DNA of 64,000 bases from an uncultured Planctomycetaceae bacterium (GTDB taxonomy: Bacteria > Planctomycetota > Planctomycetia > Isosphaerales > Isosphaeraceae). The stretch is taken from the NCBI GenBank assembly GCA_963833985.1, contig CAWIAD010000001.1:3072001-3136000 (forward strand), given 5' to 3'. Positions 20,851 to 25,061 of the stretch are shown in pieces (the first letter of the stretch is position 1; every line of letters starts with the position of its first letter). The position numbers and the translations under genes are program-made. Below the pieces are notes generated by a model. That model made no database searches. It saw only the letters and a program-made list of their open reading frames with translations, and was not told the DNA's origin.

Positions 20851-20917
20851 GCGTGGGACAAGATTCCATTCTTGTCTCTTCAAATCTTCTGATGATCCTC
20901 TCGTTTCGTGACAAGAT
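20851..20917. repeat. REP-like inverted-repeat pair; right arm split by the intron (remainder at 24927-24943)
   Basis: Left arm GCGTGGGACAAGATTCCATTCTTGTC (20851-20876); rejoined right arm GACAAGAT|CGGAATCGTGTCCCACG; similar element at 41941. Confidence 0.75.
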
Positions 20918-21081
20918 GTAGAGTCGAGGTGTGGCGCGGTGGGCTCGAGTCGATGGCTCGGCTGGGCCTCGTTTCCACACCCCGCTCATCAAACTGGACG
21001 GGCGGTGTTCCCGCATCCAGCTTTCGGACAAGGCTTGTCTCATCGGTTGAGTTCACACGTTCGCTCACGAAACCATCGCGG

Positions 21082-21681
21082 CTAGGTTCGTTGCAGCTGG
21101 TAAAGATGCAACTCCTGGTGCAGGTATCTGTCAGGGTAGCGTCTGAGCCCCTGACCCGGCACCTTGAACTTCGCACACAACCACTGACGTACCCGGTAGC
21201 GGACGTGGTGGTTGACTTGGCGATAGGCTGGGCTCACCGTTCCGATGCGAAAATAGTTGGACCAACCGCGGAACTTGCGATTGATCCGACCAATCTGCAT
21301 CTCGACGTCCTGTCCAGTGGTCTGGCGCGTCGTCATCGCACTGATCTCGCTGCACAGCCGAATGATCTTCTTCCGCGATGGGCGTGACCCTATGTAGGAT
21401 CGGCCCGTTCGTCGGTCGTAGTTCCGGCCGAGGGTATAACCCAGAAAGTCGAACGTCTCCTCAGGCAGGTGGCACAGCCGCGTCTTGGTCTCGTTCACCG
21501 TTAACTTCAGCCTGGACATCATCTTCCGCATCACCGTCATGGCCTCTTCGGCCGTGCCGCGACAGCAGATGACGAAGTCGTCCGCATAGTTGACGATTCG
21601 CGCGACCAGACGCCGCTCGTGTCCACCAGTCTTCCATCCCTTCACAAATCGTCGCATGTAGATGTTGGACAACAATGGTGA
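21082..21681 (-). pseudogene. ltrA: 3' half of the intron RT/maturase (199 aa)
   Basis: SPLLSNIYM, IVNYADDFVI, KLTVNETKT, FDFLGY and RGWSNYF. Confidence 0.9.
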
Positions 21682-23335
21682 GATCACGCCCCCAACAATG
21701 TTGCGAACTACGTTGTTGGGGGCCTTTCTCAAAAGGGGACGGACTGACCCGATACACGATGCGGACCTCCTGCTCGTCGATCTCGACCTTCTTCACCAAG
21801 GCCCGAACCACCTCCCGTCGCGTGGCCCAGTCCGGCTCTTGCAACCCTTGCGAGACGCGACGTGCGAACTCCTCCAACTGACCGATCACCAGTCGCAATT
21901 CCGCCTCTTGGGCGGCCTCGCCGATTCGTTGTCGATGCTCCTCCGCCAATCTCGAGAGGCGCGTCCTTGCCGCCGAGATCCGGGGCTCGAACTCCGATTT
22001 GTCGAGCAACCCGTCGCCGTAAGCATCGATTAATCGAGAAATCATCTTTTTCACATTATTTATCAATTTGCCGAGATGCTCCACCTCCTGATTCGGCCCG
22101 CCCTGGGCACCCTGCAGCCGCCGCTCGTACTCCTCCCGGACCCGCTCCGGCTCGGACAGGAGACCTCGTAAGTCCTCCCAGACGGCAGCGTCAAGGATAT
22201 CGGTGCGGATCTGCTTGTTCCAGCAGAGGCGCTGCCCGCCGAAACGATAGGCGTCAGAGCCCGTGCAACGGTAGTACGCGTAGCGGACCCTACCCTTGCC
22301 CTCGAACGCGGCTCGGCTCGTCGGCTTGCCGTAGCAGCCGTAGCCGCAGCGCTTGCAGACGACCAGGCCCTGGAGCAGATATCGGCCACCGCCGGGCCGG
22401 TCGCGACGGCGTTGCCGGTTCTCTTCAAGCTGGGCCTGGACAGCCAGGAAGAGGTCTTCGCTCACCAGCCCGGGGACTTCAATGAAGATTTGATCTTCCG
22501 AGGATGTATCAACCCGTGAGACCGGTCGCCGGGAGTGTTCGGGGCGGCCTCGCTGCGGGCGGAGGCGTTGAGGTTTGAACTCACCTGAGCGCGTCTTGCC
22601 GAAGGCCGCGGTCCCCTTGTAGGCAGGGTTCTTGAGGATCAACCAGACCGTCGCGCGATCCCAGGCCGATTTCCCGGTCCGCGTCGGGATACTGTCGCGC
22701 CGGAGGCGTCGGCACACCTCGCCGATCGAGCACCGTTCCTGACCCACCCATTCGAAGATCTTCCGCACGACCCGGGACTCTTCAGCGAGGACCTGATAAC
22801 GCGCCTCGCCACCTCCCTCGTGCTTGCCGATGTAACGGTAGCCGTACGGTGCGCCGCTGAGGACGTTGACCGAACCGCGGCGGGCGGCGTGTTGCTTGCC
22901 CCTGCGGCAACGCTCCATGATCTTGGCGCGCTCGTATTCCGCGATCATTCCCTGGACCTGAAGCAGCAGGTCGGCTTCCGGACTGCGGCCGACGGGGTTG
23001 CGCAAGAAGACGACCTCGACACCGCACCGGATAAGTTCCTCAAGGATCAAGACCTGATAGGCATACTTGCGTGAAAGTCGATCCGGATCGAGCATATAGA
23101 GGCGGTCGATGGCTCCAGCGGCGGCTTGGTCCCGAAGTCGCTCGAGTGCCGGTCGGGCCAGGATGTAACCGCTGACGCCGTCGTCCACGAAGTGCAGTTC
23201 GGGCTCGCATTCCAAGCCATCAGTGGCGATCCGCTGAGTGACCGCCTCGAGCTGGCTGGCGATCGTGTCCTCCTTCTCCTGCTGCTCCCCCGAAACCCGG
23301 GCGTAGAGCGCCACGCGGAGATTGTCCGTGATCAT
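21461..23335 (-). CDS. Large serine recombinase; last 73 aa read out of frame from RT DNA
   Basis: ALYARVS (catalytic Ser), DDGVSG..RPALERL, DRLSR, GAPYGYRY, LKNPAYKG, YLLQGLVVCKRCG...YYRC zinc ribbon, coiled coil. Confidence 0.93.
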   Translation of the reverse strand: MITDNLRVALYARVSGEQQEKEDTIASQLEAVTQRIATDGLECEPELHFVDDGVSGYILARPALERLRDQAAAGAIDRLYMLDPDRLSRKYAYQVLILEELIRCGVEVVFLRNPVGRSPEADLLLQVQGMIAEYERAKIMERCRRGKQHAARRGSVNVLSGAPYGYRYIGKHEGGGEARYQVLAEESRVVRKIFEWVGQERCSIGEVCRRLRRDSIPTRTGKSAWDRATVWLILKNPAYKGTAAFGKTRSGEFKPQRLRPQRGRPEHSRRPVSRVDTSSEDQIFIEVPGLVSEDLFLAVQAQLEENRQRRRDRPGGGRYLLQGLVVCKRCGYGCYGKPTSRAAFEGKGRVRYAYYRCTGSDAYRFGGQRLCWNKQIRTDILDAAVWEDLRGLLSEPERVREEYERRLQGAQGGPNQEVEHLGKLINNVKKMISRLIDAYGDGLLDKSEFEPRISAARTRLSRLAEEHRQRIGEAAQEAELRLVIGQLEEFARRVSQGLQEPDWATRREVVRALVKKVEIDEQEVRIVYRVSPSPFEKGPQQRSSQHCWGRDLTIVVQHLHATICEGMEDWWTRAASGRANRQLCGRLRHLLSRHGRRGHDGDAEDDVQAEVNGERDQDAAVPPA

Positions 23336-23700
23336 GGTTTGTCAAACCCCCCCGACCTTGGACTGGATAGTGTGGACCACAGTCGCGTGGTTGCGGCTGG
23401 GTCGCGGCCGATCCAGGCGCTGCGAAACGACCGGGATCAAGACCTGATATGCACGCGCGATCAATTGCTCCTGAAGCCGAGTGAACTCGAAGTGGCGGGT
23501 GACAGGAGGACTGAACGTGGGCCTCCGTGGGGACGTGATCATGTCGACTCCTCCTCTCCGAGAGCGCGGCCGCCAGCCTGCCTTGGATCGGGATCGAGTC
23601 GGGGCTGCCATCCGTGCCCGTACTTCGGTCGAAGCCGCGATCTGGAAATGACAGAGTCAGGAATCAGGGACGATTTTGCAACATTGTTGGGGGCGTGATC
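21682..23700 (-). mobile_element. About 2.0-kb large-serine-recombinase integrative element with 23-bp perfect inverted ends and GATC core
   Basis: GATCACGCCCCCAACAATGTTGC at 21682-21704 and its exact reverse complement at 23678-23700; removal restores the RT frame. Confidence 0.88.
23342..23542 (-). CDS. Small basic 66-aa protein upstream of the recombinase (candidate directionality/accessory factor)
   Basis: Strong GGAGGAG RBS before ATG 23542; stop lies 6 nt before the recombinase ATG. Confidence 0.6.
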   Translation of the reverse strand: MITSPRRPTFSPPVTRHFEFTRLQEQLIARAYQVLIPVVSQRLDRPRPSRNHATVVHTIQSKVGGV

Positions 23701-24395
23701 GGTGCACCTTGCGGTGTACCCATCCCCTGGTCTTTATTCCGGGTCGTTCGATGGCGCTGCCCCTTCCCGTCGGTTTCTTCCACCGGTGTTTCCAGCCACA
23801 TCTTGATCAGCCGCAGGACGCGACCGTCGCTGATGCGCCGTGACGCCGATTTCATTAACTCGGAATGGGGTATGCTATCGAAATATCCAGATAAGTCCGC
23901 GTCCACCACCTCGGTGTGCCCCGTCTTGAGCAGCCGTTCGACTTCGCGGACGGCGTCCAGGGCGCTGCGCTCCGGGCGGTAGGCGTGTTGTTCCGGCTCC
24001 AGGTCGGCCTCGAAGATCGGCTCCAAGACCAGCACCGCAGCCATCTGCACCACACGATCCTTGATGCAAGGAATGCCCAGCGGCCTTTGCTTGCCGTCCC
24101 CTTTGGGGATGTACACGCGCCGCACCGCCTGGGGTTGATACGTCTCCTTACGAAGTTGTTCCGCCAGTTCGTCCAGCCATCGTTCCTTCCCGGACGCCTC
24201 GATGTCGGCGAAACTCTGGCCGTCGATCCCCGGTGCGCCGCCGTTGGCACGGCAGCGTTCGTAGGCGAATCCCAGAACGTCACGTCGATAAATCTTGTCG
24301 TACAGGACGTAGAACCGATAGTTGGGCGCGTTCTTCGCTTTGGTGTGCAACGCCGTCTGCAACTTCCCGACCTTCAGTGGAGGTGATAGACTCAC
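23697..24395 (-). pseudogene. ltrA: 5' half of the intron RT/maturase (233 aa)
   Basis: RFYVLYDKI, GAPGIDG, VRRVYIPK..GKQRPLGIP..DRVVQ, VVDADLSGYFDSIPH and GTPQGAPI. Confidence 0.9.
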
Positions 24396-25061
24396 GCCAA
24401 TCTCCCGGCTGTCTGCCGCTTGTTGCGTTGACCTTGAACCAAGGCCCCTTCCCTCGACCGGAGTTACCCGGCGTCGACGGTACTACGGGCCTCTCCGCCA
24501 CCCCAGGCAGCCCGGCCGGTCCCTCGCGGGCGTCCGGTTGAGGGTCACGCGCCCTCACCGCTTGGGGTTTCCCGTGTTGTGTTGATCTCCGTGTGCCGAC
24601 ATGCCGTCGTCAATACCCCGGTGGCCCGCTGGGTTCTGATCGCTCGTGGGGCGGCCTATTCCAACCGTTTCCCTTTCATCCCCAGCGACGGCGGCCTTCC
24701 CCATATTCCAGCAAGGTCGGCGACCACATTGGACTTTTCGAGGCCTGCTCAACGTTCACTCGCGTTACGGCCTGTCGGTTCGCTGCATCGCCAAGCGACA
24801 CATCTGTCTCGAAGGCTCCGACGGTTTCGTCTCCTCCACCGCCGCTCCGATAGCTACCGGCTGGAGCGACCCAGTTGCCGGGTGGGAGTTACACCCACTG
24901 AAGACCAACACCTTTCCACGGCGCACCGGAATCGTGTCCCACGAGGCCGGACCTCATTGCATGGACTCTGAGAAGTTTGACGCAGATGAACGAACGAATC
25001 AAGAGTACAGGTGTTCCGAACCACGTGCTGTCTTTCATTCAGCACAGACCGGCCGCGGGGC

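Follow-up and report, generated by a model that had tools for sequence, protein, structure and literature searches.

The window, as we call the whole 64,000-nt stretch analyzed here, comes from an uncultured Planctomycetaceae bacterium (GCA_963833985.1, contig CAWIAD010000001.1, positions 3,072,001–3,136,000 of the forward strand). It contains a group II intron whose reverse transcriptase (RT) gene is interrupted by a small mobile element, and all of the features described below lie on the minus strand. The intron (20918..24926; 1,994 nt without the element) matches Rfam RF02003 at 24760–24900, and its ends were placed by comparison of 11 copies, with the 5′ end (GTGCG) at 24926 and the 3′ end (...CTCTAC) at 20918. 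The 5′ part of the RT gene (23701..24395), recognized by domain matches, ends with GTPQGAP(I), and the 3′ part (21082..21681), which matches RVT_1 and GIIM of an RT/maturase, begins with SPLLSN. The 2,015-bp element thus interrupts the gene between GTPQGAPI and SPLLSN, and excising it in silico restores an RT frame of 432 aa. The intron itself sits in a palindromic repeat (GTGGGACAMGATTCC^..TCKTGTCWC; 20908–20918 and 24927–24940), a second, empty copy of which is present near 20853–20880. This repeat is REP-like and has 69 genome matches with no more than two mismatches, on both strands, a count that has no chance control.

The mobile element (21683..23699) is a 2,015-bp unit bounded by AT crossover cores at 23699–23698 and 21684–21683, and its arms form a 26-nt inverted repeat. 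The upstream arm (23675..23700; consensus CACGCCcCCAACAATGTTGCAAAA in 25 relatives) corresponds to the P half of attL and would encode HAPNNVAK in the circle, and the downstream arm (21682..21707), the P half of attR, encodes the final recombinase residues, QHCWGRD. Between the arms there are two genes. A large serine recombinase starts at an ATG at 23335 and runs for 551 codons (21683..23335) through CWGRD to the att core with no stop codon within the element, as the sequence-only reading had stated. A small ORF of 66 aa (23342..23542), with the core VxxxFExxRLxxQxLxxAYxxLxP, ends 6 nt ahead of the recombinase ATG. If the two cores are joined in a circle, the recombinase frame continues into a further 52 codons and a stop (23539..23697; HAPNNVAK...GEEEST), giving a 603-aa form whose TGA (23541–23539) overlaps the ATG of the small ORF (23542) as ATGA. 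The predicted circle is therefore the almost fully coding two-gene ring that had been proposed, and the arithmetic closes (1812+201−4+6 = 2015 bp). No match was returned by a sigma-70 promoter scan.

The recombinase scores above the Pfam cut-offs for Resolvase (PF00239), Recombinase (PF07508), and Zn_ribbon_recom (PF13408), its AlphaFold model includes a helical coiled coil, and the best structural matches of the model are complexes of large serine recombinases with DNA (4kis, Bxb1). Assignment as an SCCmec Ccr, XisF, or IS607 transposase was rejected because the curated NCBIfam cut-offs are missed, with scores far below them for CcrB (103 of 900 bits), XisF (101 of 375), and IS607 (26 of 110), and likewise for CcrC. 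In large serine recombinases the distance from the core to the outer motif contacted by the zinc domain is about 5 bp shorter for attB than for attP. In the element and its targets the best shift is 5 on the RT 3′ side (0.46), and the 5′ side has no clear peak.

The source genome contains 11 full copies of the element with 99.9–100% identity, and a twelfth that is cut by a contig end. Nine of the full copies are within copies of the intron, seven in the forward and two in the inverted orientation, and two are at unrelated sites; two empty intron copies with the insertion site are also present. All that the insertion sites have in common is the dinucleotide AT, with one mismatched copy that has TT in place of AT at one end, and a symmetric AT core accounts for insertion in both orientations, as expected of a serine recombinase. 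At a position 16 nt past the core, the seven forward-filled introns (including the window copy, C1:3092908–3096930) have one allele and the two inverted and two empty introns have the other. The forward copies may descend from a single insertion, with the loaded intron spreading as a unit using RT supplied in trans, or may reflect gene conversion. A decayed intron elsewhere in the genome (C2:4627303–4628477) carries a fragment of a second element, 81% identical and at the same RT site, which is an older and independent invasion.

Related elements are widespread. A scan of genome contigs, covering about half of the collection, gave at least 548 related stretches, from which we kept 79 loci in Planctomycetota, Chloroflexota, Pseudomonadota, and other phyla with 41–97% identity. 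For 49 of these it was possible to place both ends, and the 30 loci lacking two scoring ends were dropped. All 49 two-ended relatives are 1.9–2.0 kb long and have the same arms, none has a stop in the final 40 recombinase codons, and all keep the recombinase frame in register at the core. This bears out the prediction that attP lies inside the recombinase gene.

The targets are degenerate RT-coding sequence. In 32 of the 49 relatives the element has in-register RT sequence on at least one side (13 in the same orientation and 19 inverted), and the remaining flanks are odd (3), of other kinds (12), or too short (2). Three elements of an alphaproteobacterial type (L057, L061, and L062) are inserted in a transposase motif, GIFPNE..I|.RL.GA, which we take to be of the IS256 type, and two proteins that match a profile of the circle-only segment are fused to PF00872, in agreement with a transposase target. 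By eye, three other elements (L067, L034, and L055) appear to be inserted in intron RNA domains or in hairpins downstream of an intact RT gene. In another three (L007, L052, and L012) there are RT 5′ halves on either side of the element, which suggests that att sites in different copies recombined with each other to give inversions or rearrangements driven by the element.

The sequence-only reading envisaged a swap between two meaningful C-termini upon integration and removal of the element. Its measurements are reproduced, in that the integrated recombinase at this site reads through the core into 73 aa of out-of-frame RT DNA (21461..21682) to give a 624-aa form, but the swap itself is not supported. 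The 73-aa extension is peculiar to the present site and orientation. Among the source-genome copies it is 73 aa in seven, 47 aa in the two inverted ones, and 22 aa in one of the non-intron copies, the remaining full copy having a frameshifted recombinase, and among the 49 relatives it ranges from 0 to 372 aa. A functional role for this extension was rejected on the basis of this variation; since the lengths differ by site, the integrated tail is whatever DNA comes next. Integration is better read as the loss of a conserved tail than as an exchange of tails.

A caveat attached to the circle frame, that 52 open codons are not rare at this base composition, stands for the single locus but does not survive comparison with relatives. 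An equally long open frame arises in 20% of base shuffles of the window locus alone, and significance must therefore come from the relatives. When circles are rebuilt from homologs (39 unique elements after removal of duplicates and exclusion of L060, L067, and L068), the tail frame is open for at least 45 codons in 35 of 39, compared with 0 and 6 of 39 for the other two frames, although these counts come from related sequences and the codon tests below weigh more. In the relative L026 the tail is cut short by a stop at its codon 8.

The tail peptides align to NNVAKxxLExxxxIxRxRLRPxYGxGF, with many conserved arginines. Among 19 distant rows, pairwise identity at codon positions 1, 2, and 3 is 0.52, 0.67, and 0.28 for residues 17–29, and R19, L22, and G27 are retained by way of many synonymous codons; in the arm (residues 1–8) the values are 0.61, 0.82, and 0.76, a DNA-type conservation. 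In eight disjoint pairs from the planctomycete clade, dN/dS is 0.35 for tail codons 9–31 and 0.28 for the end of the recombinase, whereas the other same-strand frames over the tail give 1.56 and 1.32; one antisense frame gives 0.41, which is the usual shadow. Tail codons 32–46 are neutral (dN/dS of 1.32), such that a conserved segment is followed by a linker. Insertions and deletions in the motif region are of whole codons. We therefore rejected chance openness of the frame, given the 35 of 39 open frames, the codon-position pattern, and the dN/dS of 0.35, and these comparisons support the view that the tail is a functional coding sequence under purifying selection, with a conserved module of about 30 residues.

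A profile of the tail matches 65 of the 73 loci with enough upstream DNA (22 of the 65 having been used to train it), always on the coding strand and 270–410 nt upstream of the recombinase, and matches 385 cluster representatives at E values up to 0.001. The window tail has no in-frame ATG, GTG, or TTG, and readthrough from the RT gene arrives one base out of frame and ends after 10 codons. Translation of the peptide therefore requires its fusion to the recombinase, with which it is in frame (offset 0) in 49 of 49 relatives having both ends. In the ESM Atlas the tail region matches only hypothetical proteins, below 0.75.

Several other features of the tail sequence were noted. A TAGnnT hexamer is located just inside the upstream arm (positions 29–37) in 13 of 22 non-planctomycete elements, a count with no chance control; it is preceded by TG in five elements and is absent from the clade of the window. 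It is a possible extended −10 promoter beneath the recombinase footprint, and tail residues 11–13 may be partly constrained as DNA on this account. The tail core RLRPKYG (23620–23640) resembles a loop in the recombinase domain, RLRPQRG (about 22560–22590), and the likeness could be chance or mimicry; three alignments in which tails had been misplaced onto this internal loop or onto the coiled coil were left out of folding. In L057, L061, and L062 the tail frame is open for 111–114 codons, running through the whole of the small ORF and ending shortly ahead of the recombinase start, and the ring would therefore be nearly one continuous frame.

The small ORF is a real, conserved gene, as seen from its alignment, profile, and dN/dS. 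Its profile, trained on 20 loci, matches at 74 of 77 loci and on the same strand in all of them, and its dN/dS is 0.23 in eight disjoint pairs of the planctomycete clade. It matches no Pfam or NCBIfam family, a Pfam search with 21 members gave a single chance-level match, and in the ESM Atlas there are only hypothetical proteins, below 0.9. From its position and size we consider its product a likely directionality factor (RDF). A protein in which tail and small-ORF sequence are in one frame (P0041) was folded as a monomer with a pTM of 0.22, and no contact was seen.

Translational coupling through the ATGA overlap, proposed from the window, applies at most to part of the family. With L060, L067, and L068 left out of the count, the overlap is present in 21 of 21 planctomycete-clade loci (two of them with a frameshifted small ORF) but in just 2 of 25 others, where the tail frame either stops early or overlaps the small ORF by as much as about 190 nt. 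In the window the codons for GEEEST double as the GAGGAG ribosome site of the small ORF. Coupling may thus operate in the planctomycete clade, but as a trait of the whole family it was rejected.

Evidence for the joined form comes from proteins. Among 208 proteins matching the tail profile, P0063 (472 aa, encoded on a contig of 1,509 bp) is an exact fusion in which the recombinase passes through CWGRD directly into HAPNN, and P0019 is a near-exact fusion with one extra residue. A fold-back artefact would re-enter the same arm and not the tail, and P0063, known from the protein alone, accordingly points to a natural circle or to a head-to-tail pair of elements. The attP junction was not matched as DNA in metagenome contigs (two patterns), in viral contigs, or in 201 related genomes, and contigs from eight soil and rhizosphere runs, none of which held half of the words of the element, contained empty-site joints and no go-back joints. 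The tail is likewise absent from all of the 120 best recombinase matches. Rarity of the circles and the 40-bp palindrome at the junction would each keep it out of assemblies, and the DNA-level negatives are weak evidence against a circle. We infer that recombination at the AT core produces a circle through which the element moves.

Gain and loss of the tail offer a plausible control of directionality. The small protein is encoded in both states, and a classical RDF would therefore block integration of the circle unless the circle-borne enzyme ignores it. Most RDFs are reported to extend the zinc domain DBD2 by a strand, and in some integrases C-terminal β-extensions are predicted to block the RDF site on that domain (Shin et al. 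2025, PMC12286644). In an AlphaFold model of the natural fusion the zinc domain and coiled coil are complete; tail residues 17–21 are modeled as a strand with pLDDT barely above 50, and most of the tail is below 50. We lean toward a scheme in which integration is the work of the tailed enzyme and excision that of the tail-less enzyme together with the small protein. The att site of the element would split its own recombinase gene, and the conserved module of about 30 residues would be made only from the excised circle and would render the enzyme there integration-competent. Its strand would be added to DBD2 and exclude the small protein, and the circle would then integrate although it still encodes that protein. 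Once integrated, the tail-less recombinase and the small protein as candidate RDF would carry out attL × attR excision.

Other roles for the tail are conceivable. It may be needed for full activity or stability in both directions, such that integration turns the enzyme down in the manner of phage Mx8, excision happens as an occasional leak, and the role of the small protein lies elsewhere. We think this unlikely, although Mx8 provides a precedent with a less active shortened form (cited in PMC4701971), the tail is under selection (dN/dS of 0.35, codons 9–31), and integrated junk tails of any length are tolerated: to produce 11 near-identical copies that occupy three kinds of site in two orientations, the tail-less form would have to excise often, and the zinc domain is modeled as complete without the tail. 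A docking or DNA-contact module for target capture, acting with the small protein in integration (in attB recognition) and not against it, would suit the abundance of conserved arginines and the degenerate coding sequences that serve as targets. The overlap of tail stop and small-ORF start in the planctomycete clade would also favor co-production of the two proteins, but with the overlap absent from 23 of 25 loci outside that clade this role seems quite improbable.

Conservation of the region as DNA (an att arm, a promoter, or an accessory site), or as a separate peptide, with an incidental fusion to the recombinase, is very unlikely. Residues 1–8 are indeed the att arm, with a position 3 identity of 0.76, and some lineages have the TAGnnT hexamer, but beyond the arm third positions are near random and yet the residues are kept, codons 9–31 have the dN/dS of 0.35, and length changes in the motif region come in whole codons. 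A separate peptide is further opposed by the lack of a start codon in the window tail and by its being in frame with the recombinase in all 49 two-ended relatives.

Some aspects of this arrangement are familiar. Archaeal SSV-type integrases have attP inside the integrase gene, and the targets of Mx8 and SSV-type integrases are tRNA genes. Both Mx8 IntP and the SSV-type enzymes are, as described, tyrosine recombinases that lose a larger part of the enzyme, which is unlike the element. In Myxococcus phage Mx8, attP is inside the integrase gene, and integration replaces the C-terminus and lowers activity (cited in PMC4701971, as summarized there). In Bacillus phage vB_BsuS-Goe14, attP falls within the part of the serine integrase gene that encodes the C-terminus and the enzyme is truncated on integration; the authors of that work propose that the long form serves integration and the short form excision (bioRxiv 10.1101/2021.11.22.469490). 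Goe14 is a large phage with a single target, spoVK, loses 131 aa, and is reported with no RDF gene, whereas the element is a 2-kb non-phage unit with about 30 conserved residues, a conserved small ORF, and multi-copy mobile targets used in both orientations. The Streptococcus rumA ICEs also have an att site within a serine integrase gene and a different C-terminus in the excised form, but they are described as conjugative, have a housekeeping target, and come with no account of tail conservation (PMC4701971). Similarly, DsiB of the Dehalococcoides ssrA islands is a serine integrase without a stop inside the island, and its authors suggest full function on the circle only, but the islands, as reported, are multi-gene, are located at ssrA, have a second recombinase, and come with no demonstration of a conserved circle tail (PMC3146451). 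Large serine integrases with RDFs and SCCmec Ccr proteins share the domain order, a small partner gene beside the integrase, and C-terminal β-extensions, although the extension in those described is permanent or absent, whereas that of the element would follow the integration state (PMC12286644).

The principle of attP within an integrase gene is thus already published for Mx8, Goe14, the rumA ICEs, and DsiB. In the full-text literature searched, whose coverage excludes most subscription papers, we found neither a two-gene serine recombinase element targeting group II intron RT genes nor demonstrated selection on a circle-only tail, and a term search of the main text and eight text supplements of Durrant et al. 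(PMC10083194) did not find 'reverse transcriptase'. Judged from sequence comparison, what is new is a minimal, fully coding, intron-targeting family with demonstrable selection on the tail. As the best 120 database recombinases lack the tail, cloning them as annotated would give the wrong protein.

A broader picture, which we regard as tentative and on balance doubtful, is that recombination is used to bolt an anti-RDF strand onto an integrase across widespread, all-coding 2-kb rings, the integrated form being an excision machine and the circular form an integration machine with no transcriptional regulator, and that group II introns are parasitized reversibly, with the element also spread as cargo of retrohoming introns using RT from the empty copies. 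How direction is controlled in serine integrases with C-terminal extensions is named as an open question by Shin et al. (2025; PMC12286644), and in this family a single 2-kb element would supply one enzyme in extended and unextended forms, the extension being conserved, together with a candidate RDF. It is a mobile element specialized on mobile elements, with RT genes as targets and, in one lineage, transposase genes that are presumably of the IS256 type, and its insertion would reversibly silence intron mobility.
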